This document shows positions 2,604-54,556 of a stretch of DNA of 64,000 nt, in pieces (positions within the stretch are counted from its first letter, which is position 1; each line of letters starts with the position of its first letter). The stretch covers positions 4,334 through 68,333 of the forward strand of contig CBFCZO010000008.1 of NCBI GenBank assembly GCA_965602675.1, given 5' to 3'. Source of the DNA: an uncultured bacterium (lineage in GTDB: Bacteria > Acidobacteriota > DATKUA01). The notes below the pieces were generated by a model that saw only the letters and a program-made list of their open reading frames with translations, was not told the DNA's origin and did not search any database. The translations under genes and the position numbers were made by a program.

Positions 2604-3563
2604 ATGGCTGACAAGCTGAAAGTGGTTTTCTTCGGCAGCCCCGAGCTGGCGATCCCGGCGCTGAGGGAAATAGTAAAGCATCCCGAGATAGCACTCCTCG
2701 GCGCAGTCACCCAGCCCGATCGCCCTGCGGGGCGCGGCCGCAAGCCCAAGCCGCCGCCAATTAAACAGGAGGCTCTTGCAGCGGGCTTCGACGTGCTGCA
2801 GCCTGAGTCGATCAGCGCAACTCACGTGAAATGGGCTTTGAAGGAGTTCAAGGCGGATTACTTCGTGGTTGTGGCCTATGGGCTGATACTCCCCCCGCAC
2901 GTGCTAGAGATTCCGCGGCTCGGCTGCGTAAACCTCCACTTTTCCCTTTTACCCAGGCTTCGCGGTGCGGCTCCGGTCAACTGGGCGCTCGTCCGCGGAG
3001 AGACGGTCACCGGCGTTACGACGATGCTGATGGACGAGGGGCTGGATACCGGGCCGATCCTGTTGCAGCAGGAAGCCGGGATCGAAGCGGAGGAAACCGC
3101 CGGGTTTCTCGCACGCAGGCTGGCCGATGCGGGTGCACAGCTCCTGACCAGTACGCTGATCGAATACGCCGAGGGCAGGATCGAGCCAAAACAACAGGAC
3201 CATTCTCTGGCCACCAAGGCCCCGATGCTAAAGAAAAAGCACGGCTTGGTTGACTGGAACAAGAACGCCGCGGAGATCTTCAACCGCTGGCGGGGGTTGG
3301 ATCCCTGGCCCGGGATTCACTCCTTCTTTCGTGGCGAAACGATCAAGCTGGTTCAGATAACTCAGGCAGCGGGCAAAAGCTTTGATAGCGAGCCGGGGAC
3401 ACTGGTACGGGAGGAGAACAGGCTATACACGGCCTGCGGCGGAGGTTCAGCCGTCGAGATGCTGCTCATGCAGATGCCCGGCAAGCGGCCCGTCAGCGCA
3501 AGCGATTTCGCCAACGGCTATCGTCCGGGCGAAGGAGAGCTTCTGGGAAACATCGAAGCCTGA
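2604..3563 (+). CDS. fmt: Methionyl-tRNA formyltransferase
   Basis: N-terminal KVVFFGSPELAIPAL, the formyltransferase core and a C-terminal domain. Immediately downstream of def. Confidence 0.9.
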   Translation: MADKLKVVFFGSPELAIPALREIVKHPEIALLGAVTQPDRPAGRGRKPKPPPIKQEALAAGFDVLQPESISATHVKWALKEFKADYFVVVAYGLILPPHVLEIPRLGCVNLHFSLLPRLRGAAPVNWALVRGETVTGVTTMLMDEGLDTGPILLQQEAGIEAEETAGFLARRLADAGAQLLTSTLIEYAEGRIEPKQQDHSLATKAPMLKKKHGLVDWNKNAAEIFNRWRGLDPWPGIHSFFRGETIKLVQITQAAGKSFDSEPGTLVREENRLYTACGGGSAVEMLLMQMPGKRPVSASDFANGYRPGEGELLGNIEA

Positions 3564-3607
3564 CAACGCTCTGATTCCCGCTACACAGTTCCGCCCGCCC
3601 GGCGGAA

Positions 3608-5107
3608 TTACCTCACGTCGTAGCGTATGAATGCGACGAAAGCCGCTGCGACGAAGACTACTGAAAGCAGTACCATAACGGCCAGATCGACCAGGGAGTT
3701 GGCAATGGACACATCGAGTGACTCTTGGCTGAACGATGTGGTATCGATGTACTGGTCCGATACGTCGATCGGCTGCCCGCTGCCGAAGCCCTGATTCAGG
3801 TACTCGGGGTGCTGCTTGATTAAGCCCGTCGCGTTCTTCGAAAAGGTCGCAACGGTTCCCCTCACGTGCTCCTGGAACACATCGTCCGACGAAAAGACTC
3901 CGCTCTTTGCCAGCCTCTGGATGCTGAACGTGAGCGCAGCAGCGGGCGAAGTGTATCTGCTGATGCTGGCCGCAAGCTGGGTCTGGACATTCTGCTTCAT
4001 GTTCATCTCCGCGACTTTCTTCATCCCTTCCTGTTGGACCTTTTGGGTGAACTCCTGATACTGGTCAGCAAGCCAACTTTGGAATTCTGCGGAAGCCTGA
4101 TCTCTCTGCTGTTCCCAAGCCCGCATTCTTTCGCGGTACTCATCGGTTACGACCACGGGCGTTTTCGGCCTGCTGGCGATCAACTGCTGCTGCAACTCCT
4201 GGACTTTGTTCCGGAGTTTCTTCATCAACTCCCCTGTGTTGGGTCCTATACTCCGCGCAAAATCCTTCTTCACTTCTTCCAGTGCCGGCACCTCGTGGAA
4301 CCACTGGGCCACCAGGACCGCCCCTCTTGGAACGATGCTGATGAAGAAGACCCAGAGCATCAGCAGAACGAGGAAAGAAACGCTCGAGCGTTTTGTGAGC
4401 GCGGAGACCATCATTCCCAGGCTGTAAAAGACTAGCAAGTAGAGTATGAAAGCGAGGAAGATGAGCCCCAGCCTAATCCAGTCCTCGCCGCTGAGCTGCA
4501 CCGCGGGGAAGAAAAACTCCAGGATCAGCATACCCATGATCAAGGGGATCATAAAGGGGATGATCAGCAGGACGAAGTTGCCTATCAGCTTGCCGATGAT
4601 GAAGGAACTCCTTTTCATCGGGTTGGAGAAATTCAGCTTCAGCGTGCCCAGCTCTTTCTCTCCGCTGATCGCATCGAAGGTAAAGAGAATGGCGAAGAGG
4701 CTGAGGATGATCTTGACGATGAAATCGAGGTCGAGCAGGCCGAAGACGGCGAGTATCGGCGTAGAGTTGTACTTGCTGACATCGAAGCTGGCGCCGGCGA
4801 TAGTATTTACATTCCCCCGCCTGGCGGCATCGCCCTCCACGCCGTTAACGAGCACTGAAAGGACGCTCGGGACGCGATAAACATACTGCCCTTTTTGGAG
4901 AAAGTCCTGCTGGTAGTTGAAAACATTCTTGAGCCTTTCCTTCTCCGCAGCCGTCTGCTGCCGGGCTTCATCGACCAACTGGGTGTAGGTAACGGCTCCT
5001 GTCATAAGGGCAGAGAGAATCAGCACCGTGCAGACGACATACGTGATAACCACTTTTGGTGTGCTGATGTTAGCCCTGATTTCTTTTCTTACGACATCCC
5101 AAATCAT
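3608..5107 (-). CDS. ABC-2-type permease paralog A1 (6 TM, two periplasmic domains, C-terminal RYDVR)
   Basis: Cytoplasmic DAISGEKELGTLKL (ABC-2/NatB-type GEKE..TL motif). About 200 aa helical insertion between TM5 and TM6 contains SPAAALTFSIQRLAKSG. Ends in FIRYDVR. I place the start at MIWDVV, which has an AAAGAGGG ribosome-binding site. Confidence 0.75.
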   Translation of the reverse strand: MIWDVVRKEIRANISTPKVVITYVVCTVLILSALMTGAVTYTQLVDEARQQTAAEKERLKNVFNYQQDFLQKGQYVYRVPSVLSVLVNGVEGDAARRGNVNTIAGASFDVSKYNSTPILAVFGLLDLDFIVKIILSLFAILFTFDAISGEKELGTLKLNFSNPMKRSSFIIGKLIGNFVLLIIPFMIPLIMGMLILEFFFPAVQLSGEDWIRLGLIFLAFILYLLVFYSLGMMVSALTKRSSVSFLVLLMLWVFFISIVPRGAVLVAQWFHEVPALEEVKKDFARSIGPNTGELMKKLRNKVQELQQQLIASRPKTPVVVTDEYRERMRAWEQQRDQASAEFQSWLADQYQEFTQKVQQEGMKKVAEMNMKQNVQTQLAASISRYTSPAAALTFSIQRLAKSGVFSSDDVFQEHVRGTVATFSKNATGLIKQHPEYLNQGFGSGQPIDVSDQYIDTTSFSQESLDVSIANSLVDLAVMVLLSVVFVAAAFVAFIRYDVR

Positions 5108-5131
5108 TGCACCACCCTCTTTCGACACCCG

Positions 5132-6553
5132 TCAACGGACGTCATAGCGTAGAAAGGCGACGAACGACGCCGCGAAGAAGACTAAAGCCAATAGTATCAG
5201 CAGGCCAATATCCCAGATCGAGCGGGAGATGGTCGTAGCGAAATCCTCTTCCTTGAACAGGAAATGGATCCTGCTTTGCTGGACCTCCAATTCCTTATCG
5301 CCCATGAAGCTCTCAAAGAACTTTTGCGGATCGGAATCGTCAATATTCTTCATCTCTTCGAAAACGTAATTCCTGAATTGCTGCTGGAAATCGCGTAGTT
5401 GGTCGATGTACTCGGTCTGGCGGGCCCAGCCGCTGCCTGCGAGGTTTTGAACCGCGAAGCTCATCGCCGAAGTCGGCGAGAGGCTGCGGGCTATCGACTC
5501 GGCCAGCACGATCTGCGCCGCCTGCTGCTGCTCATATTGCAGGTCATACTTGTCCAGAACCTGTGACTGAAATGCCGAGAGCTTCTCGAAGATGGACGTG
5601 ATCATTTCCGCAAGCTCGCCGCTTCGAGCCGCATCCGCGAATCTCGATTGGTCGTTGAACTCCTCCATCACTTCGCCGCGTTGCTGCGCGATCTCCTTCA
5701 TGGCCTTCGTCTGGAGGCTGGTGTAAGACTCATACGGCTTGAGCCGCTCCGCAGCCACAAGGCTCAACTTGGGGATAATCGTGACGAACAGCACCCAGAT
5801 CATCAGCAGCACGATGAAGCTCGTGGCAGAGCGCTGGCAGAGAGAGCTGACGAAGAGCCCGGCGGCAAAGAACACTCCGAGATAGACAACGTAGATGCCG
5901 ACAATCACCAGAAGTCGCAGCCAGGTATCGGCATTGAAGGCGCCCAGCACACCCGGATAGAACGCCGTCATGAACGCCAGGCCGATTATCATCGGCAGGA
6001 TGAAGGCGATCAGGATCACCGAATAGCCGCCAATAATCTTGCCGAGCAGGATCTTGTAGCGCGGCACTTCGTTGGCAAGCGCCTGCTTGAGCGTACCCAG
6101 CTCCTTCTCCCCGCTGATGGAGTCGTAGGTGAGCAGTATAACAAATAGGCTCAGCACGATTTTAACGACGAAGGTGATGTCGACGTTGCCGAAAACGGCG
6201 AGGATGGGAGAGACCAGATTACGGCTCTCGTCGAGGTCGGTGTCGATGTCCAGGTTAATTTCCGCCTGCCGCCCCAGGCTGTCGTCGATGCCCGTGTCGA
6301 CGATGGTCAGCACGTAGGGGACCTTTGCCTCGAACAGCCCCACGTAACCGGCATTTATCCAGTTGTTCTGGGCTGCCAACACCTCATGATTGGTCCGCAG
6401 GTGCTGCTGGGCGTCGCCGACTTTTTCCGTGTAATTCTTGCTGCCGATGATCAGGCCCGATATCACCAGCAGGATGACTACCACAAAGGTGACCACGAAC
6501 TTGAGCGTGCTGACGTTGTCCATGATCTCCTTGCGGATAATGTCCCTCAGCAT
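5132..6553 (-). CDS. ABC-2-type permease paralog B1
   Basis: Same architecture as A1: SGEKELGTLKQ, SPTSAMSFAVQNLAGSG, ends in LRYDVR. Strong ribosome-binding site GAAAGGAGTGGAAGG. Confidence 0.75.
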   Translation of the reverse strand: MLRDIIRKEIMDNVSTLKFVVTFVVVILLVISGLIIGSKNYTEKVGDAQQHLRTNHEVLAAQNNWINAGYVGLFEAKVPYVLTIVDTGIDDSLGRQAEINLDIDTDLDESRNLVSPILAVFGNVDITFVVKIVLSLFVILLTYDSISGEKELGTLKQALANEVPRYKILLGKIIGGYSVILIAFILPMIIGLAFMTAFYPGVLGAFNADTWLRLLVIVGIYVVYLGVFFAAGLFVSSLCQRSATSFIVLLMIWVLFVTIIPKLSLVAAERLKPYESYTSLQTKAMKEIAQQRGEVMEEFNDQSRFADAARSGELAEMITSIFEKLSAFQSQVLDKYDLQYEQQQAAQIVLAESIARSLSPTSAMSFAVQNLAGSGWARQTEYIDQLRDFQQQFRNYVFEEMKNIDDSDPQKFFESFMGDKELEVQQSRIHFLFKEEDFATTISRSIWDIGLLILLALVFFAASFVAFLRYDVR

Positions 6554-6631
6554 TTGCCTTCCACTCCTTTCACACCTCTCAACGTTCCCTGCCGAAATCG
6601 GAATCGCCTGATCCCGCCGTCACAACGTGGC

Positions 6632-8086
6632 TCAGCGAACGTCATAGCGAAGAAAAGCCACGATCGCCACCGCCAGGAAGATTGTGGCGGTCAAAGCCAG
6701 TATTGCGAAATCCCAAATGGAGGCTTCCACCGATTCGCCCAGCGTCTCCGCAACGTAGAATGACCGATCGGGATACACTTCCGACAGATCCAACTTCTCC
6801 ATCGAGATACCCTGACCACCCATGAGCGAATCGGGCCTATTAAAGTCCCGCGCGTAATCGGTGTAGCTTTTGATATAGTCGTCCACGCTGTCCTTGAACT
6901 GCTCATCGGATGAGTAGACGCCGGTTCTAGCCAGCCTGTCCACGGCGAAATCGAGCGCAGCCACGGGCGATGTGAGGCGGCTTAGAGTTATCGCAAGCTG
7001 GTTCTGCCTCTCCTGCTTCATCTCCTGCTCGCGGCTGATCTGGAGACCCCTTTCCGACATTTCCCGGGCGAATACGTCGTGCGCCTCTTGAATTCCTTGC
7101 AGCATCTCCTGCTGCATCTGCTGCATGTTGCTCAACCCGTCGGGGCTGTTCATTCCCGCCCTGATGAATTCAAACAGCTCCTCCACGCGCTCGCGGACGG
7201 AATTCATGAAAGCCTCCTGGCTGGAGCCGAACTCGCTGAAATATTCCTTCCTGACTTCGTCCAAAGGCGGAACAGGCTCGAGCGTCTGGGCCGTCAGCAC
7301 CGCCACCCGGGGAACCACGCTGGTGAAACACACCCACAGCATGAGCAGGATCAGGAACGAGACGACCGGCCTTTTCGTCAGCGCAGAGACCATCATCCCC
7401 ATGCTGTAGAAAACCAGGAGGTAAAGCACGAACGCAAGGGTAATCAGCAGGATTCGGATCCAATCGTCACTCGAGAAATCGATCCCGGGAGTAAATTCCA
7501 CGATCAAGAGCCCCAGGATCAACGGCAGGACAAACGGAATCAGTAACAGGATGAAATTGCCGATCAGCTTGCCGATGATGAAGGTGCCTCGCTTGAGCGA
7601 ATTGGCGAAATTCAGCTTCAGCGTTTCCTGCTCTTTCTCGCCGCTGATGGCATCGAAGGTGAATAGGATCGCGAAGAGGCTGAGAATAACCTTGACGATG
7701 AAGCTCAGGTCGAGCATCCCGAAGATGGCTAGAATCGGCGTGGAATTGAACTTGCTGACATCGAAATTCGAGCCGGTATAGAAGGTTATCCGTCCGCGCC
7801 GGGCCGCGTCGCCCTCCACTCCCGAGACTAGCACCGACAGGACGTCGGGTTCGCGATAGAGGTAAATGCCGTTCACCATGAAATCCATCCGGTAATTGAA
7901 GACGTTGCGGAGCCTGTCTTTCTCCGCAGCCGTTTGCGCAACCGCCTCCTCCTTCAGGCTAAGGTAACTCATTGCTCCGGTGATCAGCGCGGCCAGAATC
8001 AAGATCATACATACCGCATATGTGATCACCACCTTGGGGCTGGTCAGGTTGACCCGGATCTCTTTCTTAACTATCTCGAATATCAT
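6632..8086 (-). CDS. ABC-2-type permease paralog A2
   Basis: N-terminus MIFEIVKKEIRVNLTSPKVVITY closely parallels A1. Also has SGEKEQETLKL and SPVAALDFAVDRLARTG. Ends in LRYDVR. Confidence 0.75.
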   Translation of the reverse strand: MIFEIVKKEIRVNLTSPKVVITYAVCMILILAALITGAMSYLSLKEEAVAQTAAEKDRLRNVFNYRMDFMVNGIYLYREPDVLSVLVSGVEGDAARRGRITFYTGSNFDVSKFNSTPILAIFGMLDLSFIVKVILSLFAILFTFDAISGEKEQETLKLNFANSLKRGTFIIGKLIGNFILLLIPFVLPLILGLLIVEFTPGIDFSSDDWIRILLITLAFVLYLLVFYSMGMMVSALTKRPVVSFLILLMLWVCFTSVVPRVAVLTAQTLEPVPPLDEVRKEYFSEFGSSQEAFMNSVRERVEELFEFIRAGMNSPDGLSNMQQMQQEMLQGIQEAHDVFAREMSERGLQISREQEMKQERQNQLAITLSRLTSPVAALDFAVDRLARTGVYSSDEQFKDSVDDYIKSYTDYARDFNRPDSLMGGQGISMEKLDLSEVYPDRSFYVAETLGESVEASIWDFAILALTATIFLAVAIVAFLRYDVR

Positions 8087-8107
8087 CTCATCCCCTGCAC
8101 AAACGGC

Positions 8108-9559
8108 TCAGCGAACGTCATAACGGATGAATGCGACGAAGGACGCGGCGAAGAAGACTATCGACATCAGGGCCAAAACGGCCATATCGATCATCGCCCG
8201 GGAGAACACGGTGCCCAATGTCTCCTCGCGGAACTCGAAGCTTACTCTGCCAATGTCGACATCGAGCTTCTGCTTATCCATCATGTCCCACATGCTCTGG
8301 TATTCCACCGCCTCCGCTTTCTCGAAAACATAGTTCATGAAATCGATGCGGAATTTCCTCAACTGGTCGATGTACTCACGTTGCCTCGCCCATCCCGATC
8401 CGGCAAGGCTCTGCACGGCGAAGCTCATGGCGGAAGTCGGCGAGAGAAATCTTGCCATCGACTCCGCCAGCTCGATTTGTGACCGCTGTTGCCGATCGTA
8501 TTGGCGATCGTAGTAGTCCATCACTTCGCGCTGCACGTCGCCGAGTTGGCGCCAGAATTCGGTCATCATTTCCGAAATCTCGGTCGTGGGCTCCTGCTCC
8601 TCGCCGCCGCCCATGAAGGCCTGCATCATGCTGCTGTTGCGGATCTGGATGAACTTCGGCAAAAACTCGTCCATCACCGCGGCACGCTTCTCGGAGACTT
8701 CCTTGTAGGCCTTGGTCTGCAAGGCGGTGTACGATTCGTACGGCTTGATGCGCTCGGAGGTGGCTAAGCTGATGCGGGGAATGATCGTGACGAAAAGCAC
8801 CCAGATGACAAGCAGCACGACGAAGGAAGTCGAGGAGCGATGGCTGAGAGAAGAGACAAAAATCCCGAGCGAGAAAAACACCGCCAGGTAAAGCAGGTAG
8901 GCGGCGATGATGATCAGCAGGCGCCACCAAGCATCGGGTGTGAAGTCAGCCAGAACCTCATTGTAGAAACCCATCATGAAGGCCAGGCCGATGAGCAATG
9001 GCAACAGAAAGGAGAAGGCGATCACGGTGAAGCCACCCAGAATCTTGCCCAGGAGAATTTTGTAACGGGGGATATTATTCGCCAAGGCTAGCTTGAGCGT
9101 GCCTCTTTCCTTTTCCCCGCTGAGAGCATCGTAGGTAAGCAGAATGACGAAGAGCGAGAGGATTATTTTTACCACGAATGTCAGGTCGACCTCACCGAAG
9201 ACGGCAAGGATGGGCGAAACAAGGTTACGGCTTTCATCCAGCCGCGCATCGTCCAGGGTGTCGACGTAGGCGAGCCTGCCCAGGCTGTTGTCGATGCCGT
9301 TATCAACGGTGGTCAGCACAAAAGGCTTCTTAGATTCGATAACGCCGGCCCAGCCTGCGTTGAGCCAGTCGAACTGGCTCTCGAGCATCTTCTGGTTGAG
9401 CTGCCGTTGCCTATTTATTTCGCCTCGCTGTTCGAGATAATTCTTGCTACCCAGCACCAGGCCGGAGATCACCAGGACAACGACCACCAGGAATGTAAGA
9501 GCGAACTTGAGCGTGCTGACGCTGTCCCGTATCTCCTTGAGAATTACGGTCCGCAGCAT
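8108..9559 (-). CDS. ABC-2-type permease paralog B2
   Basis: N-terminus MLRTVILKEIRDSVSTLKFALTFLVVVVLVISGLVLGSKNY parallels B1. Also has SGEKERGTLKL and SPTSAMSFAVQSLAGSG. Ends in IRYDVR. Confidence 0.75.
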   Translation of the reverse strand: MLRTVILKEIRDSVSTLKFALTFLVVVVLVISGLVLGSKNYLEQRGEINRQRQLNQKMLESQFDWLNAGWAGVIESKKPFVLTTVDNGIDNSLGRLAYVDTLDDARLDESRNLVSPILAVFGEVDLTFVVKIILSLFVILLTYDALSGEKERGTLKLALANNIPRYKILLGKILGGFTVIAFSFLLPLLIGLAFMMGFYNEVLADFTPDAWWRLLIIIAAYLLYLAVFFSLGIFVSSLSHRSSTSFVVLLVIWVLFVTIIPRISLATSERIKPYESYTALQTKAYKEVSEKRAAVMDEFLPKFIQIRNSSMMQAFMGGGEEQEPTTEISEMMTEFWRQLGDVQREVMDYYDRQYDRQQRSQIELAESMARFLSPTSAMSFAVQSLAGSGWARQREYIDQLRKFRIDFMNYVFEKAEAVEYQSMWDMMDKQKLDVDIGRVSFEFREETLGTVFSRAMIDMAVLALMSIVFFAASFVAFIRYDVR

Positions 9560-9594
9560 ATTTTGCCTCCTGCAACCACCCGGAAAACAAGCCG

Positions 9595-10302
9595 TCAGGT
9601 GCGCATGTAGTCAAGGTAGAGGGCCTCGAGATCCTCGTGCTCGAGTTCTTCGGCGGTTCGCGTCATCACCAGGTTGCCCTTTTTCATGATGGCGACGCGA
9701 TCAGCGAGGCCCTTGCTGCGGAAGATGTCGTGAGTGCTCATGAAGATGCATCTTCCCTCTTCGCGCAACTCTTTGAGTAGGTGGACGAATTCATCGGCGG
9801 CCTTAGGATCGAGGCCGGATGTCGGCTCGTCGAGGATGACGACCGGGCTGTCCTTTAAGATCGCAATCGCGATACCTGTCTTCTGCCGCATGCCCTTGCT
9901 GAAGGTTTTGAGTTTACGCTCGAAAGCCTCCTCCTCAAGACCGACGCGCCTCAACGCGTTGTAATACTCCTCCCGCGAAAGGTTGCGCTTGCCTCCGAGG
10001 CGGGCGAAATAATCGAGGTTCTGCCGCGCGGAGAAGTTGGGGTAGAGCATCACGTTCTCGCTGACGAAGCTGACGTGGCGCTTCGCTTGCAGCGGGTCTT
10101 TTGTGACGTCGATATTGTTTATTCGGGCGGTGCCTTCAGAAGGCTCGATGAAGTTGAGCAGAAGGTTGATCGCAGTTGTTTTGCCGGCGCCGTTCGCACC
10201 GAGCAGGCAGAAAATCTCGCCACCTTCCACCTTGAGATTAAGGTGATCCAGCCCAAGCACTCCGTCCTCGTAGCGCTTGGTCAGGTCGATCGTCTCAAGC
10301 AC
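9595..10302 (-). CDS. ABC transporter ATP-binding protein, the single ATPase of the 4-permease operon
   Basis: Walker A GANGAGKTT, signature FSKGMRQK and Walker B VVILDEPTSGLD. First gene of the minus-strand operon. Confidence 0.9.
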   Translation of the reverse strand: MLETIDLTKRYEDGVLGLDHLNLKVEGGEIFCLLGANGAGKTTAINLLLNFIEPSEGTARINNIDVTKDPLQAKRHVSFVSENVMLYPNFSARQNLDYFARLGGKRNLSREEYYNALRRVGLEEEAFERKLKTFSKGMRQKTGIAIAILKDSPVVILDEPTSGLDPKAADEFVHLLKELREEGRCIFMSTHDIFRSKGLADRVAIMKKGNLVMTRTAEELEHEDLEALYLDYMRT

Positions 10303-10689
10303 TTTGTCTCTCCTCCGCTATAGTTATCTCAAGGCGACATTTCTTTATTATTTATACACATTCATAACGAGTTGCACCACTTATAAGTTCCATCGCACTT
10401 CGTGTAATCCTCATGACTGACAATTCCATGCAAAACGCCGATAGTTGAGAAAGGCAAACTCCATGTGTACAAATTCGGGGAAGCAACCGGAGATAGCCTG
10501 TAAACCCTTTGGGTCGATCCTGAGTCTAATATTATAAAGGGGCAGATGTGTCTTCGGGGCTCAGGATACTTGGCTGCTCGTGCATGAAAGGATACCACAA
10601 CCGCCCGCCAGGTATAAAAGACCAGATGGAGTTTGAGGTTGGCAACTCAACCGCTTAGAACAGAACATCGGGAGAACGGAGAGTCGCCT

Positions 10690-11010
10690 ATGCTTTATGC
10701 CATCGACTATTGCTTCGTCGACGGCACCGTCAGCATCAAGCTCGCTACCTTCTTCTATGACGGTAAGGAGATCTGGTACGAGATTTGTTATGACGGACCG
10801 CAAATCTCTTCGCCTCACTTCGTTCACGAAGATCTTCGGAAGCAGATGCACAGTATTATCCGCTTGCCGATAATGCGCTCTGAGCTTCGCGCCAGAACGA
10901 TGCCCTTGTATTTCAAGAATCTGGAGCCAAACTCGATGGACCACTTCTGTAATATCAGGCACGACTCCACCTATTATCGCTTTTCCTCGATCCGTAGAAT
11001 CTCCAGCTGA
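10690..11010 (+). CDS. Hypothetical small protein in a low-GC islet
   Basis: ORF in an AT-rich segment. Product MLYAIDYCFVDGTVSIKLATFFYDGKEIWYEICYDG... has no recognisable family. Confidence 0.25.
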   Translation: MLYAIDYCFVDGTVSIKLATFFYDGKEIWYEICYDGPQISSPHFVHEDLRKQMHSIIRLPIMRSELRARTMPLYFKNLEPNSMDHFCNIRHDSTYYRFSSIRRISS

Positions 11011-11153
11011 GATACCCTCGGCACTGGGATTACTCCCGGAGCGCCGTCAACTTCTATTGACCAAAATCAAAACGTCGACTACTTTTAAAGTATCAGAGTG
11101 GTAATTATTTATCCTAAGCGCCTAACGATTATAAAAAGACGATCGAAAAACCG

Positions 11154-11666
11154 ATGAAAAAATCCCGCACATCGCCCGAGCGTGCAAGAGTTGCAGAGAG
11201 CGACAACGCCCTCCTGCTTCACCCTCCCGGAGCCGTCGACATTGCAACTTTCATGCAGAAATGCACCGGAGCCGGCAGTTGTGTCGAAGCCTGCCCTTAC
11301 GGCAGCATCTCGTTCATGTCGCTGGGGAACAAAAATAAAATCCCCGTGATAAATCCGGCTGTGTCTCCCTGCTATCTCTGCGAGCCGGCACCCTGCTCAG
11401 CCGCGTGCGAGTCGGGTGCACTGGCACAGATCGACATCCGCCGGGTTCGCATGGGGACGGCTAATATCAATCCCTACTTATGCTTGAGGTTCATTGGTCA
11501 GGATTGCACGGTCTGTTACAACTCATGCCCGCTGAAGGATGAAGCCATCCTGTGGGAAGATGAGATCGAAGCCCCGTTGATAAACATGGAAAGATGCACG
11601 GGCTGCGGGGTCTGTCTTTTCAAGTGCCCTGGGCCGGCGGGGCCGATTACCATCACAATCGACTGA
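11154..11666 (+). CDS. 4Fe-4S ferredoxin-type iron-sulfur protein
   Basis: Multiple Cys clusters: CTGAGSCVEACP, CEPAPCSAACES, CTVCYNSCP and CTGCGVCLFKCP. Confidence 0.7.
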   Translation: MKKSRTSPERARVAESDNALLLHPPGAVDIATFMQKCTGAGSCVEACPYGSISFMSLGNKNKIPVINPAVSPCYLCEPAPCSAACESGALAQIDIRRVRMGTANINPYLCLRFIGQDCTVCYNSCPLKDEAILWEDEIEAPLINMERCTGCGVCLFKCPGPAGPITITID

Positions 11667-16323: not shown

Positions 16324-16521
16324 TCAAGCGCTGACTTTCGCGGCGGGCTCCGCCGTGCCGCCCCAAACTCCAGCGCCTGAGCCGGTCCTGCCCGGCACTT
16401 CGGCCGAAGTGCGCTTCGCGCCCAGCCCGCACAGGGCCAGCACCACCAGCCGCAGTCTGCTCCTGCGCCACTCGTTAACCGTCGAGAGAAGTCCCGACAC
16501 TCTGTCGCTTGCCTTGCTCAT
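16324..16521 (-). CDS. Possible small ORF (65 aa) whose start overlaps the ftsZ stop as ATGA
   Basis: ATG overlaps the ftsZ TGA. Product MSKASDRVSGLLSTVNEWRRSRLRLVVLALCGLGA... In GC-rich sequence this may be a spurious ORF. Confidence 0.2.
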   Translation of the reverse strand: MSKASDRVSGLLSTVNEWRRSRLRLVVLALCGLGAKRTSAEVPGRTGSGAGVWGGTAEPAAKVSA

Positions 16522-17705
16522 GCGCGCTTCTTTTCCTTGGTCAACATCCGCCGTCTCAGGTAGGCGGGGATCTTCAATTCGTCCTCGCTCAGCCTGCGCG
16601 GATTAAGCACCGTAATGCCTTCCACCCGGTTGAGTTTCCTGTGGCGAGGGACATCGACTCCGCCGGAGCTCAGGCGCTGTGCCGGATTCCCGCTCTCGCT
16701 GACGTGCCTTTGGAGGAAGTCGAGCTCCACAACTTCGTTGAACAGGGGCAGCCCGGAAGCGATCACGCTCACCCGCGTCTTGCCCTGCTTGACTCCGTTA
16801 AAGACCACGCCGAGTGCGAGCTGCGCGTCCTTGCTGAACACGCGCTGAGCCACGCCGAATGCGTTGCGCACGCCGTCCATCAGAACATCGTCGTCGATGG
16901 CGAACTGGATAAGCGCCCTCGGGGCTTTGGTGATGTCGCTCTTCATCTTGGCGAAGCGTTCCATGGCTGTCTTGAGGGCTTCGATCGCGTTGTTGCGCAT
17001 CGCGCTCACTCCAGTGGCGAAAGCGCAGAGCCCGCCCCGCGTGAGGTGGCTCTTGATCGTCCCGAAGTCGAGCAGCATGCGCTTGCTGGGCGTCAGGAAT
17101 TCGAGGATTCCGCAAACCGTCTCCATCAAGGCCGCATCGGCGCGCCTCAGAGCTTCCTTCGCCGCCATCTTTCCCTGGCCGACACCGGCCAGCATGTCGT
17201 TGCTCAGCAGGAACACCGAATCGGCGCTGCGCACAAGCGAATGGATTTTGCGCTTGGCGAGTATCGATTTGCTCTCTTCCTCGTAACCGAATGGGCGCGT
17301 GGCGATTACTATCGTGAGCGCGCTTGCCGAGCGGCTGATCTTGGAGATTTCGGGTACCAGGGCGGTTGCCGTCCCGCCGCCGAGCCCTCCAAAAATCAGG
17401 TTTGCCTTGACTCCGCTCATTAGATCGCGCACCTGCATGTTGTTTCCGCTGAGGCAGCGCTCGCCGATCTTGTCGTCGCCGCCGGTTCCGTCGCCGCCGG
17501 TGAATTCCTCGCCGAGCAGGAGCTTCTGATCGCATTCGGACTCAAACAGTCTGCCTCGGTCGGTGTCGATACCGAGGGTGGAGACCGAGTTGCCGAGAAT
17601 GTCATGCAGGCGGTCGAGCAAGGTCAGACCGCAACCGCCGACGGCAGTCACCTTGACCTGGCTCAGCCCTTCCTCTCTCGTCTCGGTATCCTCGAAAAGC
17701 TTCAT
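16518..17705 (-). CDS. ftsZ: Cell division protein FtsZ (divergent GTP-binding motifs)
   Basis: Aligns to FtsZ: VKVTAVGGCGLT (cf. IKVIGVGGGGGN); ANLIFGGLGGGTATALVPEISK...TIVIATRPFGYEE (cf. GADMVFIAAGMGGGTGTGAAPVVA...VAVVTKPFNFEG); C-terminal DELKIPAYLRRR (cf. DYLDIPAFLRKQ). Confidence 0.88.
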   Translation of the reverse strand: MKLFEDTETREEGLSQVKVTAVGGCGLTLLDRLHDILGNSVSTLGIDTDRGRLFESECDQKLLLGEEFTGGDGTGGDDKIGERCLSGNNMQVRDLMSGVKANLIFGGLGGGTATALVPEISKISRSASALTIVIATRPFGYEEESKSILAKRKIHSLVRSADSVFLLSNDMLAGVGQGKMAAKEALRRADAALMETVCGILEFLTPSKRMLLDFGTIKSHLTRGGLCAFATGVSAMRNNAIEALKTAMERFAKMKSDITKAPRALIQFAIDDDVLMDGVRNAFGVAQRVFSKDAQLALGVVFNGVKQGKTRVSVIASGLPLFNEVVELDFLQRHVSESGNPAQRLSSGGVDVPRHRKLNRVEGITVLNPRRLSEDELKIPAYLRRRMLTKEKKRA

Positions 17706-19015
17706 ATCAGCTCTCTCCCCTCGGGAACCGGCGCTCCCACCAGAGCGCTAAACCAGCAACGCGCTTTTTCAAAGGCGGTCATGCCTGCAGTTTCCATGCG
17801 CCTATTGGCGAGGATCCGCTTGCGCAGCAGGCGCAAAGTTCCCACCAGCGCGGCGCAGCCGGGATCGCTGAAGCCCATCCTCGTGCCGTTAACCGCTCGC
17901 GGATGCCCCACCTCGACGGTCCTGTCGAGAACGATCTCGGCCAGTTCCGGCAGGCCGGCCAGCCTGGCGCACCCTCCGGTCAGGATCACGCGGGAAAGCA
18001 GTTCGGGAGAGAGACCCTTGCTGATCTCCTGGCCGACGGCGTAAAGCAACTCCTGGGCGCGATCGCGCAGTACTGAGGCGATCTCTCGCGCTGACACGAG
18101 CTTCTCCACACCCAGGCCTCTCTCCTTCAGGTCAATCACTTCGTTGTAGCGGATTACCTGTGGCAGGGCGCAGCCATAGTTGTGCTTGACGTCTTCCGCA
18201 ACCGCCATGCTCTCGTTGAGGAAGATCGCCAGGTCGGAATCGAAATCCCGGCCGCCGCTGGCGATGACACCCAGATGAAGCAGCTTGCCGTGGGCGTAGA
18301 CCGCCACGTCGGTGGAATTCCCGCCCAGATCGATCACCGCGACTCCGGCTTCGGTGTTCTTGCCGAGCACCGACAGCGCTGAACTCAGCCCGGAGTAGCT
18401 CCAGGATTTGACGCTGTAGCCGCAGGACTTGAAGGCCTTTTCGATTTGCTCGAGCGCCGAGATGGGCGCGGTGACGAAGGTGATCTCTATGCCGAGCTGC
18501 TCTCCGCGCATTCCCAGGGGCGGCTCGTTGCCGCTGTAGACGGAATCGAGGCTGTAGCGGACCGGAACCACCTGCATCACATGCTCGACAAGGCTTGAAA
18601 TTTCCTCCCGCGTACGCCGGACCGCGTCGTCAACAATCCTCTGGGTCACACGGCGGCGGGCGGGGACCTTGACGTTAGCGAAATGGCTGAAGTAGGAGAT
18701 GAAGGGAGCGGAGACTGAGACATGCAGGCGCTTCGAGCGAACTCCGTTGCGGCGCCGCAGGTCGGTGACCGCGCGATCGACGGCGGCGGTAAAGCGCGCC
18801 GGATCGGTGACCGCTCCATCGCTGATTCCGAGGTTATAAGAGGAGGCGTAATCCAGCACCATCACCTCGCCTGACGGCCCTATCTTCGCCAGCAGGGCTT
18901 TGATGGTGCTGTGGCCGAGATCGACGATCAGCAGATTGTCGCCGTTGCCGCGCCTGGCCACCCCCTTCCACCTCTGGTAGGCGGACTCAAAATCGATGAC
19001 TGCGCGACGATTCAT
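17702..19015 (-). CDS. ftsA: Cell division protein FtsA (actin-like ATPase)
   Basis: Motifs LLIVDLGHSTIKALLAKI and VIDLGGNSTDVAVY. ATGA overlap with ftsZ. Confidence 0.88.
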   Translation of the reverse strand: MNRRAVIDFESAYQRWKGVARRGNGDNLLIVDLGHSTIKALLAKIGPSGEVMVLDYASSYNLGISDGAVTDPARFTAAVDRAVTDLRRRNGVRSKRLHVSVSAPFISYFSHFANVKVPARRRVTQRIVDDAVRRTREEISSLVEHVMQVVPVRYSLDSVYSGNEPPLGMRGEQLGIEITFVTAPISALEQIEKAFKSCGYSVKSWSYSGLSSALSVLGKNTEAGVAVIDLGGNSTDVAVYAHGKLLHLGVIASGGRDFDSDLAIFLNESMAVAEDVKHNYGCALPQVIRYNEVIDLKERGLGVEKLVSAREIASVLRDRAQELLYAVGQEISKGLSPELLSRVILTGGCARLAGLPELAEIVLDRTVEVGHPRAVNGTRMGFSDPGCAALVGTLRLLRKRILANRRMETAGMTAFEKARCWFSALVGAPVPEGRELI

Positions 19016-28576: not shown

Positions 28577-29872
28577 TCAGACCTTGAAGATTGCGTTCTC
28601 GTTCTTGAACATCCTGGCGCAGAGCCATATTGCAATCCCTGCGATTACCAGGGTGCTGACGAAAGTTAGCGCGTAGTAATGCATCACCTCGAAGCCCTGG
28701 CCTGCCAGCACCTTCTTCAGCACCAGCGAGACGTTCACGACAGGAATCAGGGAAAGAGTGAAGTTGAGCTCGACTCCGGGCAGGAACGAAGCGAACGCGG
28801 GCAGAATGATCAGTATGGTGAGCGGCCCCATATATCCCTGGGCCTCGCGGTAGCTACGGGCGAACACAGAAATGGTCAGCAAGATGCCGGCGAACACGAA
28901 CGCCAACGGCACGACCAGCAACACTGCCAAGAGGATCGTCTGCGTATCGATGCTGAGTGTCATCACTTCCCTGAGCTGTCGCCCGATCTCTCCCATCGAG
29001 AAGCCGTAATAGAGGCCGACAAGGGCCAGCACGGATGAAATGACCCCGGTCATCACGATCACGAGAAACTTGCCGGTCACCAGCTCGATCCGGCTCGCGG
29101 GGCTGGCCAGCAGCGTCTCGAGAGTCTTCTGCTCCTTTTCGCCCGCGGCCATGTTTATCGCCGGGAACATCGCGCCGTTGAAGGTCATCAGGATGATCAT
29201 GTAGGGCAGAATCCTGCCGAATATCTCACCTGCTCTTTCCTGCCCGGTGGCCATGTCCTGGCCGGCGGTCTCGAACGGATCGATGATTGATGCCTGAAGG
29301 CTGGCGTTTTCCAGCCGACCGGCCACCACGCGTTGGCGATAAGTCGTCAAGCTCCTGCGCAGCCTCTCGAAGGCTTTCTCCGACCTCTCGCTGGTCGATA
29401 GGTAGTCGATGCGCAGGTTCAAGCCCTTGTCGTGATCCTGGAGCTGCCCCTGGAAATCCGGCGGGATCACCAGCACTGCGTCCAGTTGCTTCGAATCAAT
29501 CAGTTTCCTGATTTGGCCTTCTTCACCCGCCACCGGTGCATCATCGAGAATCTCGATAAATGCATTGACGCCCGACTGTTGTTCGATGGCGAATATGTTG
29601 AGATCACTCTCAACGGGCGGATTGAAGCGCTGCCGTTCCTCGTTCCTGAGGTAATCGATCAGGGCCGGCGCGTCTTCGGCGCCGACGACCGCCACCACGC
29701 TATTCCTCTCGGCAATCCCCTTGGCGCTGCCGATGGTGAACATGCTCATCAGGTACATCAAAGCTGGGATAAGAAACAGCGGCATAATGACCATAAATAT
29801 AACCGCGCGGCGGTCGCGGATTATATCCAACACTTCCTTGCGAAATACTACCCAGATTGTGCGCGGATTCAT
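28577..29872 (-). CDS. ABC-2 family permease (NatB-like)
   Basis: TM1, ~180 aa periplasmic loop, then TM2-6 with AGEKEQKTLETLL. Confidence 0.8.
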   Translation of the reverse strand: MNPRTIWVVFRKEVLDIIRDRRAVIFMVIMPLFLIPALMYLMSMFTIGSAKGIAERNSVVAVVGAEDAPALIDYLRNEERQRFNPPVESDLNIFAIEQQSGVNAFIEILDDAPVAGEEGQIRKLIDSKQLDAVLVIPPDFQGQLQDHDKGLNLRIDYLSTSERSEKAFERLRRSLTTYRQRVVAGRLENASLQASIIDPFETAGQDMATGQERAGEIFGRILPYMIILMTFNGAMFPAINMAAGEKEQKTLETLLASPASRIELVTGKFLVIVMTGVISSVLALVGLYYGFSMGEIGRQLREVMTLSIDTQTILLAVLLVVPLAFVFAGILLTISVFARSYREAQGYMGPLTILIILPAFASFLPGVELNFTLSLIPVVNVSLVLKKVLAGQGFEVMHYYALTFVSTLVIAGIAIWLCARMFKNENAIFKV

Positions 29873-30606
29873 TACTTTTCCCCCACTATCTTGACAAAGG
29901 CGTCCTCGAATTCATTCTCACCCGCCACCTGTTTCAGCGAATCGACTGTTCCCTGCGCGAAGAGCCTGCCGTTGTGGATAATAGCCACCTCGTCGCAGAG
30001 CCGCTCCGCCTCACGCATTATGTGAGTGGAGAAGATAATGCACTTGCCCTGATTCTTGCAGAAGTTGATGAAATCGACGATCGAGCGCGCGGCTAGTATA
30101 TCCAGCCCGACTGTCGGCTCGTCGAAGACCATGACGGGCGGATCGTGGACGATAGTGCGGGCGATGTTCACCTTCTGCTGCATTCCCGAGCTGAGCTTTG
30201 AGCACTTGGTGCCGAGGAAATCCTCCATGTCGAGCCACTTCGCGATCTCGGCTATTCTGGGGCCGATACTCTTACGATCCATGCCGTTGAGCTGGCCGAA
30301 ATAAGTAATCACCTCGCGGGCGGTCAGTCGCTGGTAGAGGCCGGTGTTGCCGGTGAGGAATCCGATCTTCGCCCTGACGAGGGAGGGTTTTTTCAGCACA
30401 TCGAGCCCATCGACCTCGATGCTCCCCGATGTCGGTTTCATCGTAGTCGAGACGATCCTGAGAGTTGTGGTTTTGCCGGCGCCGTTGGGCCCCAGCAGGC
30501 CGAAAATCTTGCCGGACTCGCAGGAAAAGCTGACATTGTCGACGGCACGTATTTCTCCCCGCTTCCGGTCTTTGAAGATTTTGATTAGATTTTTTACGGA
30601 AATCAT
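29872..30606 (-). CDS. ABC transporter ATP-binding protein (NatA-like), coupled to the permease
   Basis: Motifs GLLGPNGAGKTT, LSSGMQQK and VMVFDEPTVGLD. TAATG overlap with the downstream permease. Confidence 0.9.
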   Translation of the reverse strand: MISVKNLIKIFKDRKRGEIRAVDNVSFSCESGKIFGLLGPNGAGKTTTLRIVSTTMKPTSGSIEVDGLDVLKKPSLVRAKIGFLTGNTGLYQRLTAREVITYFGQLNGMDRKSIGPRIAEIAKWLDMEDFLGTKCSKLSSGMQQKVNIARTIVHDPPVMVFDEPTVGLDILAARSIVDFINFCKNQGKCIIFSTHIMREAERLCDEVAIIHNGRLFAQGTVDSLKQVAGENEFEDAFVKIVGEK

Positions 30607-40142: not shown

Positions 40143-41144
40143 ATGGGAGGAGGCGGCTTTCCGAACTTCCCTGAGATCCGCATGCCGAAGCTCAACCCGC
40201 AGATCATTATATTGGCGATCGTCGGCATCGTCATCCTCTTGGGGCTGCTCACTTCGTTCTACACTGTGGCCCCGGACGAAGTCGGCGTTATTCAGCGCTT
40301 CGGCAAGTTTATCGGCACAGCGGATCAGGGACTTCACTTTAAACTTCCCTTCTTTATTGACAACGTGACCAACGTCAAGACGACGTTTGTCTACAAGAAT
40401 GAATTCGGTTTCCGCACGGCCCGTGCCGGGGTGCAGAGCGAATTCGTCACCACCGGTGAAGGGCTCGATTCCGAGCGTCTGAGCCTGACCGGCGACCTCA
40501 ACGTGGTGGTTGTGGAATGGGTGATGCAGTACACGATCATCGATGCCTACAAGTATCTCTTCAAGGTGCGCGATCCCGAGGCAACCATTCGTGCGGCTTC
40601 GGAAACAGCGATCAAGGAGGTGATCGGCGATTACACGGTGGACGAGGTGATCACCACTGAGCGTGAGGCTGTCGCCGCCAAGGCGAGAATCTCAACCCAG
40701 GAGCTTCTTGACAACTATGAGATCGGCATCAACATCGTCGACGTCAAGCTGCGCAACGTCAACCCGCCCACTCGCGAGGTCCAGGACGCATTTGAGGAAG
40801 TCAACCGCGCCGAGCAACGCCGCGACGAGTTGATCAACAACGCCGAGGCGGAATACAACGCCACCATTCCCCGTGCCCGCGGGCAGGCGCAGCAGCGCAT
40901 CGAGCAAGCGATCGGCGCCAAGCAGGCGCGCATCAACGTCGCTCAAGGTGAGGCCGATCAATTCAACCAGGTCAGAGCGGAGTACAACAAGGCGCGCGAC
41001 GTCACCCGCCAGCGCCTCTACCTCGAGACCTGGGGCGTGATCCTGCCTAAACTCGGGCGCAAGATCATCGTCGACGGCGATCTCCGGGGGCTGGTGCAGC
41101 TTCTCAATCTTCAGGCTGCCGCCAACCAGGGAGGTGAGCGATGA
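40143..41144 (+). CDS. hflK: Protease modulator HflK (SPFH/band-7)
   Basis: Motif FYTVAPDEVGVIQRFGKFIGTADQGLHFKLPF and the SPFH domain. Confidence 0.85.
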   Translation: MGGGGFPNFPEIRMPKLNPQIIILAIVGIVILLGLLTSFYTVAPDEVGVIQRFGKFIGTADQGLHFKLPFFIDNVTNVKTTFVYKNEFGFRTARAGVQSEFVTTGEGLDSERLSLTGDLNVVVVEWVMQYTIIDAYKYLFKVRDPEATIRAASETAIKEVIGDYTVDEVITTEREAVAAKARISTQELLDNYEIGINIVDVKLRNVNPPTREVQDAFEEVNRAEQRRDELINNAEAEYNATIPRARGQAQQRIEQAIGAKQARINVAQGEADQFNQVRAEYNKARDVTRQRLYLETWGVILPKLGRKIIVDGDLRGLVQLLNLQAAANQGGER

Positions 41145-47045: not shown

Positions 47046-47120
47046 GCCAGCGTAGCTCAGTGGTAGAGCAGCTGATTCGTAATCAGCAGGTCGGCGGTTC
47101 GAATCCGCCCGCTGGCTCCA
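47046..47120 (+). tRNA. tRNA-Thr (anticodon CGU)
   Basis: GCCAGCG-TA-GCTC-AGTGGTA-GAGC-A-GCTGA-TTCGTAA-TCAGC-AGGTC-GGCGG-TTCGAAT-CCGCC-CGCTGGC-T-CCA. Cloverleaf with anticodon CGT and encoded CCA. Confidence 0.9.
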
Positions 47121-49045: not shown

Positions 49046-49047
49046 AT

Positions 49048-49648: not shown

Positions 49649-49707
49649 TCGGACAGAATCCCAACCGTTTTATCTACCATCATGTGTGAATCTCAAGTTG
49701 GGTTATA

Positions 49708-51111: not shown

Positions 51112-51120
51112 ACCCTCCGT

Positions 51121-51954: not shown

Positions 51955-51978
51955 CCGGCCCTCCGGGTGCGCTGTTTA

Positions 51979-54549: not shown

Positions 54550-54556
54550 ATTACCC

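Follow-up and report, generated by a model that had tools for sequence, protein, structure and literature searches.

In the minus-strand gene cluster considered here, a single ABC ATPase gene is followed by four permease genes with an additional periplasmic domain. The cluster lies in a 64-kb stretch of DNA (hereafter the window) from a MAG of an uncultured member of the Acidobacteriota. The results place it as an interesting variant of the known, uncharacterised DUF3526 family and not as a new kind of system.

Results

Organization of the operon

Five minus-strand open reading frames occupy positions 3608–10302, an ABC ATPase gene coming first and the permease genes A1, B1, A2 and B2 after it (Table 1). 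The sequence-only reading had described an ATPase with four tandem permeases in the order A-B-A-B, and this arrangement was recovered with all frames intact and permeases of 473–499 aa. The intergenic gaps measure 21–78 nt and each gene is preceded by a Shine-Dalgarno-like sequence; therefore, the five genes form one real operon. The start codon of B2 is most likely the ATG at 5107 and not the GTG at 5128. A Shine-Dalgarno-like sequence, AGAGGGTGG, stands upstream of this ATG, and translation from this start yields exactly database protein P0089.

The operon is neighboured by fmt/def, a small conserved ORF, ferredoxin and SMC. The small ORF, which is divergent, is confined to the window clade. 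In positions 10200–11200, ahead of the operon, the Rfam search gave nothing at E ≤ 1, neither a riboswitch nor another leader RNA, and the single match in the whole window at the gathering threshold was a tRNA. In the promoter and terminator scans of positions 3300–11200 consensus matches were not commoner than in shuffled sequence, and these searches found no conserved cis regulator for the operon.

Table 1. Features of the operon, with positions in the window.
Feature	Position	Strand	Remarks
ABC ATPase (NBD), 235 aa	9595–10302	−	Operon gene 1; sole NBD gene of the operon
Permease A1, 483 aa	8108–9559	−	NosY-like ABC-2 permease with DUF3526 insertion
A1 insertion, residues 266–450	8210–8764	−	Predicted: DSSP on AF2 model; positive-inside bias in flanking short loops
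Permease B1, 484 aa	6632–8086	−	Subtype B; SGEKEQETLK as coupling motif
B1 insertion	6734–7297	−	Predicted: AF2 model, alignment
Permease A2, 473 aa	5132–6553	−	A1 paralogue, 60% identity
A2 insertion	5234–5758	−	Shortest hairpin, 99 residues between invariant P261/P374 equivalents
Permease B2, 499 aa	3608–5107	−	B1 paralogue, 54% identity; GTG 5128 is an alternative start
B2 insertion	3710–4315	−	Longest hairpin, 128 residues between invariant Pro anchors
Upstream intergenic region, ~330 nt	10303–10632		Presumed operon promoter and leader

Family assignment of the ATPase and the permeases

The ATPase matches PF00005 at 2e-29, and its motifs are intact by sequence (Walker A GANGAGKTT, Walker B with the catalytic Glu VVILDEPTSGLD, and the H-loop). 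Its closest solved NBDs are those of ABCA3/4/1/7 (1e-50 to 1e-56), NosF (1e-37) and Rv1218c, and it matches the drrA subfamily model at 6.4e-55, under the curated cutoff of that model. Judged from these matches, the operon carries its cognate ATPase, of the DrrA/NosF/ABCA class.

All four permeases match PF12679 (ABC2_membrane_2) with 100–110 bits, the cutoff being 27.2 bits (E-values 6.7e-29 for B1, 1.2e-28 for A2 and 2.3e-30 for B2), and have the type V ABC (ABC-2) fold. The PF12040 (DUF3526) model was matched by A1 (34.0 bits) and A2 (28.5 bits, 2.9e-6), both above the 25-bit cutoff, whereas B1 (20.9 bits) stayed below it and B2 gave no match. The B insertions align with the invariant motif columns, and the B1 insertion folds like that of A1 in the AF2 models. 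In A1 and A2 the insertion is Pfam PF12040 embedded in PF12679, and the B insertions are probably of the same kind; by precomputed Pfam labels, the PF12679 + PF12040 architecture is present on most of the 120 database matches listed. Moreover, alignment of an 85-sequence family profile with Hymenobacter WP_269562104 by hhalign gave a probability of 99.8% (E 1.5e-28) over 437 columns. The earlier statement that the domain order matches no family is not supported, as the A permeases show PF12679 + PF12040 and the homology to the RefSeq 'DUF3526 domain-containing protein' extends over the full length. A full-text literature search returned no mention of DUF3526 or PF12040, and literature searches for the NEW3 domain with ABC transporters and for ABC-2 systems with TonB-dependent receptors gave nothing useful.

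Structure of the TM5–TM6 insertion and conserved motifs

Hydropathy analysis gave six TM segments in each permease, with about 180–200 aa between TM5 and TM6; in the alignment the insertion measures 175–202 aa. The short inside loops are rich in K/R, residues that are missing from the short loop outside, and the permease core superposes on NosY with the same TM order, which corresponds to a six-TM protein with both termini in the cytoplasm. The AF2 models of A1 (pLDDT 90) and B1 (pLDDT 90.1) contain the same helical hairpin. The models, the positive-inside bias and the NosY superposition agree with the initial proposal that the insertion is helical and periplasmic. According to DSSP on the AF2 model, the A1 insertion would comprise a hairpin (residues 277–315 and 327–372), the SP-motif helix (374–386) and a further helix (390–417), the Pfam DUF3526 match spanning residues 347–417; in the B1 model the hairpin is formed by residues 275–311 and 317–372 and is followed by helices 374–386 and 390–415. 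Across the comparison the stretch from one invariant Pro anchor of the hairpin to the other varies in length between 97 and 132 residues, and no covariation was found between the hairpin lengths of gene-adjacent partners (r = −0.30, n = 16). An insertion-only profile run against 1.84 billion representatives yielded 118 matches. Among the matches listed, the insertion appears only within the NosY-like permease architecture, and in those of at least about 440 aa it lies at approximately residues 245–470. As modelled, the periplasmic module is a confidently predicted structure with no solved counterpart.

The C-terminal (I/L)RYDVR and the motif SPxxAxxF(A/S)(V/I)(Q/D)xLAxxG are present in all four permeases, as had been noted from the translations. 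In the set of 85 homologues P374 does not vary, while conservation is ≥90% at S373, R370, Q361 and G389. The motif DxxSGEKExGTLK, also attributed to all four, is exact in three of them, but B1 reads SGEKEQETLK, in which E replaces the nearly invariant G of the other three permeases. The interpretation of SGEKExGTL as a cytoplasmic ABC-2/NosY-type motif is in line with its alignment with NosY DAIVGEDEGGTL.

Duplication and selection of the permease genes

Pairwise identity amounts to 60% for A1/A2 and 54% for B1/B2, as against 32–37% between A and B, and in the neighbour-joining tree both subtypes form clades with 100% bootstrap. The N-termini, at first described as near-identical within a subtype, are in fact 62–70% identical. 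In the paralogue comparison identity reaches 67–74% in the TM2–TM5 core versus 28–49% in the hairpin. The P1–P2 genes of the window are orthologous as a unit to P1–P2 of the relative L003 (95% and 96% bootstrap), in which six permeases follow the order A-B-A-B-A-B, with the same strict subtype alternation as the A-B-A-B of the window. In Desulfatiglans (L072) a P1–P2 unit was duplicated independently, both sister pairs having 100% bootstrap. The dN between paralogues is alike for A (0.33) and B (0.39). The strict alternation, the orthology of whole units, the independent duplication in L072 and the similar dN all argue that A+B is the functional unit. The phylogeny bears out the (A+B) × 2 duplication model, with independent unit duplications in other lineages too, and supports an origin of the array by duplication of an A+B gene pair, a process that is recurrent. 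The duplication is old, because the paralogue dS of ~1.6 is saturated; both pairs are kept in the window and in the relatives L005 and L001, and L003 has three pairs.

Each operon gene was also compared with its orthologue in a MAG of 90–95% identity. The dN/dS values across the five genes were 0.04–0.17 (ATPase 0.044, B1 0.167, A2 0.095 and B2 0.089), with a range of 0.07–0.17 for the four permeases at an orthologue dS of 0.24–0.60. Purifying selection thus acts on each of the five genes, and these values indicate that all copies are functional; the shared features are due to homology and not to chance. It is therefore hardly credible that one pair is merely superfluous or in decay, without a distinct role of its own. 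Tandem paralogues are often of neutral origin, and the G-to-E change of B1 affects a nearly invariant motif position, but the four frames are intact and constrained and the old pairs have been retained throughout the window clade members named above, so that the dN/dS analysis largely refutes this explanation.

Relatives and partner genes

A single scan by motif, covering 185,579 species genomes, gave 525 confirmed relatives. The number of permeases per ATPase among relatives is 1, 2, 4, 5 or 6, and arrays of 4, 5 or 6 permease genes per ATPase gene occur in at least three separate lineages (the window clade, L072 and L029). The four-permease layout, which had been considered unmatched, is indeed unusual, but it is also found in close relatives and, independently, in the Desulfatiglans MAG. 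Multi-permease arrays behind a single ATPase gene are unusual among ABC systems, and their recurrence, together with the purifying selection that retains all copies, could be taken to mean that four permeases and ATPase dimers build one hetero-oligomeric machine, with the hairpins forming a periplasmic barrel or tube. This is improbable, however. As far as is known, the number of TMDs in a type V ABC transporter is always two. Single- and two-permease relatives are in the majority, which suggests that the basic unit works as a dimer, and the variable number of pairs (two in the window, L001 and L005, three in L003) is a better fit to modular isoforms.

Related FCB-group and Aminicenantes systems, such as L061, L076 and L043, have the same permease family, at 31–37% identity, the same ATPase type and comparable A-P-P or P-A layouts. 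They also possess a conserved partner gene of ~500 aa, whose product has a signal peptide, an adaptor-like, MacA/HlyD-like alpha-hairpin, beta domains, a NEW3 domain (PF10633) and a C-terminal TM anchor, whereas the window clade is without it in cis and has extra permease pairs instead; a search with an HMM built on this partner likewise gave no homologue for the window or for L001, L003 and L005. In the Hymenobacter operon the order is TonB-dependent receptor, ABC ATPase, DUF3526, DUF3526, and there is no substrate-binding protein gene. No TonB-dependent receptor is present in the 64-kb window or in the syntenic relatives. Since both the NEW3 partner and the receptor are absent from the window, an unlinked partner may exist.

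Discussion

The preferred reading, to which we assign a probability of roughly 60%, is that this type V DUF3526 operon encodes two alternative A/B heterodimeric machines which share one ATPase and whose stalk acts on an envelope substrate. The NBD dimer would be supplied by the single ATPase gene, and the adjacent pairs A1+B1 and A2+B2 would each form a heterodimeric membrane domain; alternatively, homodimers or A1/B2-type combinations may be formed, and the lack of covariation between the hairpin lengths of adjacent partners speaks against the pairing. Both heterodimers would dock onto the same ATPase via the conserved cytoplasmic D-x-x-SGEKE-x-x-TLK coupling region, resulting in two isoform machines with one motor. 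Each permease consists of a six-TM NosY core and a two-part periplasmic module between TM5 and TM6, comprising an antiparallel helical hairpin of variable length (~100 residues, with a projection of ~55–60 Å if upright) and a conserved membrane-proximal part, Q..Q..LA...SR-SP..A..F...LA..G, with an amphipathic helix after it. The binding and hydrolysis of ATP would act through the TM helices on the periplasmic stalk, whose movement would expel or hand over a substrate located in the membrane or periplasm. This substrate is probably hydrophobic or amphiphilic, either an envelope constituent or a toxic compound. Recognition by the divergent hairpins would set the two isoforms apart.

A possible, though rather unlikely, explanation is that of a pure NosFY-like mechanotransducer, in which no substrate crosses and the hairpins work on a periplasmic or outer-membrane partner encoded elsewhere in the genome. 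NosY is the closest solved relative of the permeases, and PDB entries show it with the periplasmic NosD, NosL and NosZ. NosFY has reportedly been interpreted as a mechanotransducer (Müller et al., Nature 2022). Since it is not known to translocate a substrate, this explanation is favoured by the relationship. It is also consistent with the secreted, C-terminally anchored NEW3 protein encoded next to the ABC genes elsewhere in the family, with the TonB-dependent receptor adjoining the Hymenobacter genes, and with the character of the insertion, a charged coiled-coil hairpin without resemblance to a binding pocket. However, the window and the syntenic L001, L003 and L005 contain no partner gene, and many family loci are likewise without one (of 81, 29 comprise one permease gene and one ATPase gene, as PA or AP, and 2 are APP); therefore, the core is probably self-sufficient. 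Moreover, the ATPase is most similar to the NBDs of ABCA-type lipid transporters, although this is little guide to the substrate.

The same Hymenobacter operons, which pair DUF3526 genes with a TonB-dependent receptor and have no gene for a substrate-binding protein, might point to an importer or inward flippase, whose helical periplasmic domain would capture a ligand for the type V core to move inward. ABCA4 is a type V flippase with importer direction, and the ATPase of the window is ABCA-like. Such a function is nevertheless very improbable, given that neither the window nor its syntenic relatives have the receptor. With an identity of only ~20%, the Hymenobacter proteins may differ in function, and the bacterial ABC-2 systems characterised so far are, to our knowledge, exporters or mechanotransducers.

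On a broader scale, it may be suggested tentatively that the DUF3526 permeases constitute a new type V class with hairpin stalks, lineage-specific partners and one motor for two or three A/B isoforms. The TM5–TM6 coiled-coil hairpins of a permease dimer would then form an ATP-driven periplasmic stalk. Its partner would be the adaptor-like NEW3 protein in some lineages and a TonB-dependent receptor in others, and in still others it would have no partner. We know of no description of such a 'one motor, several heads' arrangement for ABC-2 systems.

Within the NosY-like type V ABC family, the DUF3526 permeases form a widespread, unstudied branch. The locus and its relatives present the permease pair as a functional unit, repeatedly duplicated while the ATPase gene stayed single, in a family associated with at least two different envelope partners. 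Although the locus alone does not answer a long-standing question, it offers structural and genetic studies concrete targets in the A/B pairs, in the invariant Pro/SP anchors and in the NEW3 partner, through which to ask how force is transmitted, or cargo moved, into the periplasm by type V ABC transporters.

Comparison with known systems

Membership in several known systems was ruled out. GldAFG is rejected by the 22–33 bits obtained with TIGR03518 (GldF), whose cutoff is 288.5 bits, and by the lack of an adjacent GldG-like gene; type VII (MacB/LolCE/FtsX), by the lack of a four-TM FtsX permease with a TM1–TM2 periplasmic domain. No NatB-specific model was among the profile matches of the operon proteins. 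In ABCA proteins the extracellular domains are placed between TM1 and TM2 and do not form helical hairpins, and EL3 of ABCG proteins is short; the insertion has no sequence relationship to the extracellular domains of ABCA1/ABCA4 or ABCG2.

NosFY (PDB 7o0y, 7znq, 7qba) contains the closest solved permease homologue. NosY, however, has ~270 aa, lacks a hairpin of ~100 or more residues, forms a homodimer, has periplasmic NosD as its working partner and belongs to nos clusters, whereas the window permeases are not compact and no nos-cluster gene or NosD was present among the ORFs scanned in the window; a role as NosFY in N2O-reductase maturation is therefore excluded. The likeness to MacB, LolCDE and FtsEX is one of concept only, namely that an ATPase in the cytoplasm drives a large domain in the periplasm, and the mechanotransmission analogy seems reasonable because NosFY is regarded as a mechanotransducer. 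The Hymenobacter canadensis proteins WP_269562104 and WP_269562105 resemble the window permeases, despite the low identity, in the PF12679 core, in the helical TM5–TM6 insertion, which bears the SP motif, and in size (~470 aa), and in both cases the permease genes stand behind one ATPase gene, two in number in Hymenobacter. The Hymenobacter operons begin with the TonB-dependent receptor and have one permease pair, whereas the receptor-free operon of the window has two.

Results

Five closely packed ORFs fill the minus strand of 3608-10302, and the array of one ATPase followed by A-B-A-B permeases was found as the sequence-only reading had described it, with minor corrections. The intergenic gaps are 21-78 nt and a Shine-Dalgarno-like sequence precedes each gene, which marks the ATPase, A1, B1, A2 and B2 genes as one predicted operon. 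The start of B2 is most likely the ATG at 5107, because a Shine-Dalgarno-like sequence lies upstream of it and the resulting product is identical to the database protein P0089. Rfam searches gave no riboswitch upstream of the operon, and promoter and terminator scans around it returned nothing useful. The global identity reaches 60% for A1/A2 and 54% for B1/B2, against 32-37% between A and B. The C-terminal (I/L)RYDVR and the SPxxAxxF(A/S)(V/I)(Q/D)xLAxxG motif occur in all four permeases, as had been claimed, whereas the third claimed motif, D-x-x-SGEKE-x-G-TLK, is exact in three of them, E replacing G in B1. With orthologues in L005 (a MAG 90-95% identical) as reference, dN/dS is 0.04-0.17 for all five genes. 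Selection therefore maintains all four permeases, which contradicts the explanation that they are redundant duplicates and makes it less likely.

Coordinates of the operon, of other features in the window and of selected related loci
Feature	Position	Strand	Remark
ABC ATPase	9595-10302	-	ORF, 235 aa
Permease A1	8108-9559	-	ORF, 483 aa
Permease B1	6632-8086	-	ORF, 484 aa
Permease A2	5132-6553	-	ORF, 473 aa
Permease B2	3608-5128	-	maximal ORF; 499 aa from the favoured ATG
Small ORF	10633-11010	+	likely true start near 10690 (M20); ~105-125 aa, soluble, conserved
FtsA-FtsZ pair	16518-19015	-	
Second ABC-2 system	28577-30606	-	
Two adjacent SPFH/Band 7 genes	40143-42262	+	HflK/C-like
tRNA	47046-47117		
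Oxidoreductase-like cluster	47311-56596	-	
A-B-A-B-A-B array	L003:4737-14386		metagenome relative; SMC/fmt-def synteny as in the window
NEW3 partner genes	L061:7712-9214, L076:2889-4403, L043:12177-13688		also about 30 other related loci
Receptor-ATPase-DUF3526-DUF3526	NZ_CP114768.1 18146-24275		L088, Hymenobacter canadensis plasmid

The permeases had been regarded as matching no recognisable family, a view that did not survive profile searches. PF12679 (ABC2_membrane_2) matches all four (1e-28 to 1e-31), and the match extends over the full protein on both sides of the insertion between TM5 and TM6. PF12040 (DUF3526) matches the insertions of A1 and A2 above the gathering threshold and that of B1 just below it, while B2 gave no match. 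The combination of PF12679 and PF12040 is present in most of the 120 homologues listed (precomputed Pfam labels), and full-length homologues in Hymenobacter carry the RefSeq name 'DUF3526 domain-containing protein'. A window-family profile of 85 sequences matched one Hymenobacter homologue with 99.8% probability (E 1.5e-28) over 437 columns, insertion included. Judged by sequence, the permeases belong to PF12679/type V and to the DUF3526 subfamily, and their second periplasmic domain is thus a catalogued rather than an unrecognised one. An insertion-only profile gave 118 matches among 1.84 billion representative proteins; wherever a listed match is at least about 440 aa long, the domain occupies approximately residues 245-470, and it therefore appears only in the architecture of PF12679 plus insertion. 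DUF3526 is catalogued yet completely uncharacterised, and a full-text literature search returned no papers on DUF3526 or PF12040.

Six TM segments were predicted from hydropathy, TM5 and TM6 being separated by about 180-200 residues. The AlphaFold2 models of A1 and B1 (pLDDT 90.2 and 90.1, respectively; pTM 0.87) have the same order of elements. TM1 reaches ~23 residues into the periplasm, and a small beta-sheet in loop 1 is followed by TM2 to TM5. Then come two long helices with a short connecting loop (277-315 and 327-372 in A1, 275-311 and 317-372 in B1), which in these models must pack as an antiparallel hairpin. The helix breaks at the conserved S373-P374 and is followed by helix 374-386 with the SP motif, a turn at the conserved G389, helix 390-417, a poorly ordered linker and TM6. 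P261, Q361, R370 and D458 are further strongly conserved positions. The permease core superposes on NosY, an N2O-reductase assembly protein, with identical TM order, and the SGEKExGTL motif is aligned to NosY's cytoplasmic DAIVGEDEGGTL. K/R residues are abundant in the short inside loops and absent from the short TM3-TM4 loop. The superposition, the motif alignment and the loop charges argue strongly for a periplasmic location of the insertion, which, together with the models, bears out its description as helical and periplasmic.

A neighbour-joining tree of 38 family members supports the window lineage's A clade and B clade with 100% bootstrap each and unites the two with 85%. The window permeases P1 and P2 are orthologous to P1 and P2 of L003 (bootstrap 95% and 96%), which dates the duplication of the A+B unit to before the separation of these lineages, in agreement with the proposed (A+B)x2 history. 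Paralogue dN is similar for A (0.33) and B (0.39), with dS saturated. In L003 itself one ATPase is followed by six permeases, arranged as three A-B units. The P1-P2 unit of the Desulfatiglans MAG L072 arose twice by a separate, independent duplication (100% bootstrap for both sister pairs), and in L029, labelled Gemmatimonadales, at least five permease genes accompany an ATPase and a partner gene. In a layout census of 81 loci (A, ATPase; P, permease; N, NEW3-domain partner), one permease gene adjoins the ATPase gene in 40 (PA, PAN, AP, NAP), two permease genes accompany it in 18 (NAPP, APP) and four to six in 6, and the other 17 loci are for the most part cut short or divided by ORF calling. 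Duplication of the unit has happened repeatedly in the DUF3526 family. The hairpin is 28-49% identical between paralogues, compared with 67-74% for the TM2-TM5 core, and paralogue divergence sits mostly in this predicted element. Its length between invariant proline anchors varies from 97 to 132 residues (membrane-proximal part 79-102); no covariation was found between the hairpin lengths of adjacent partners.

The best genome match was the Acidobacteriota MAG SMAG_U14095 (95% amino-acid identity for A1), and a second Acidobacteriota MAG showed 58% identity. The gene order around the array is conserved in Acidobacteriota relatives: in the window and in syntenic relatives, SMC, ferredoxin and a small ORF are divergent from the array, and fmt-def converge on it from the other side. 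The small ORF lies next to the ABC ATPase, with ferredoxin and SMC after it, and is 49-84% identical across the syntenic relatives L005, L001 and L003. It had no Pfam match or family assignment, and its homologue was not found in other DUF3526 loci; it is clade-restricted. The two Acidobacteriota MAGs nearest to the window each contain an additional DUF3526 permease locus on a different contig (L050, DATKUA010000051.1; L074, CAYOXX010000110.1). These loci group as a sister clade to the A and B clades of the window. The contigs are short, and no ATPase gene was detected beside the permeases, whose neighbours include a peroxiredoxin and an MMPL/RND-type transporter.

Elsewhere in the window, a second, unrelated ABC-2 system comprises a 244-aa ATPase (PF00005) and a 431-aa permease (PF12698/PF12679), the latter with no PF12040 match. 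A cluster whose products resemble Fe-only hydrogenase, NuoF, NuoG/molybdopterin oxidoreductase and GltD would fit an anaerobic hydrogenase or formate dehydrogenase complex, possibly an electron-bifurcating one. In the FtsA-FtsZ pair, FtsZ matches its C-terminal domain profile weakly (20.6 bits, below cutoff).

Discussion

The DUF3526 family occurs in four genomic contexts, namely with a NEW3 partner, with a TonB-dependent receptor, with a regulator only (HTH_34 alone upstream) and with no partner. The NEW3 partner gene encodes ~500 aa and adjoins the ABC genes in FCB-group, KSB1, Zixibacteria and many Aminicenantes loci. Its product consists of a signal peptide, an alpha-hairpin weakly similar to CzcB/RND_mfp/HlyD adaptors, beta domains, PF10633 NEW3 and a C-terminal TM anchor, and appears uncharacterised. 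Hymenobacter operons (L088, L089; RefSeq annotation) have the order TonB-dependent receptor, ABC ATPase, DUF3526, DUF3526, which suggests that this distant branch works together with an outer-membrane receptor. The window clade has no NEW3 partner, TonB-dependent receptor or HTH_34 regulator in cis, and neither NosD, a TonB-dependent receptor nor an obvious accessory protein was found among the ORFs scanned in the window. Taken together, the four contexts make the transporter core look self-sufficient, yet able to couple to envelope partners. The partners of other branches, along with the nature of the closest solved homologue, favour the main rival explanation, a NosFY-like pure mechanotransducer that would act on an unlinked partner.

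The best-supported reading is that A1B1 and A2B2 are alternative type V ABC machines, each an A/B heterodimer, which share one ATPase dimer. It is based on the strict A-B alternation, the unit duplication, the conserved coupling region and the pair number varying among close relatives. As regards pairing, ATPase sharing, stalk movement and substrate alike, we infer that each A would pair with its adjacent B on a common ATPase dimer, that ATP-driven TM-helix movements would be passed on to the periplasmic stalk, and that a substrate located in the membrane or periplasm would be expelled or handed over by this stalk; the divergent hairpins may give isoform specificity. A single large hetero-oligomer, in place of two alternative heterodimers, is a less likely arrangement, and import, in place of expulsion or handover, a less likely role.

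Summing up, what is new here is the combination of several permease pairs with one ATPase and the lack of a partner gene in the vicinity, the family itself being known but uncharacterised. The DUF3526 family deserves structural and genetic study, and current understanding is not overturned. Among known systems, GldF (22-33 bits against a cutoff of 288.5) and a MacB/FtsX/Lol fold were ruled out for the window permeases. NosY proper was also ruled out, since no NosD or nos cluster was found among the ORFs scanned in the window and the permeases have twice the size and are probably heterodimeric. The operon's ATPase most closely resembles ABCA-type NBDs and NosF.
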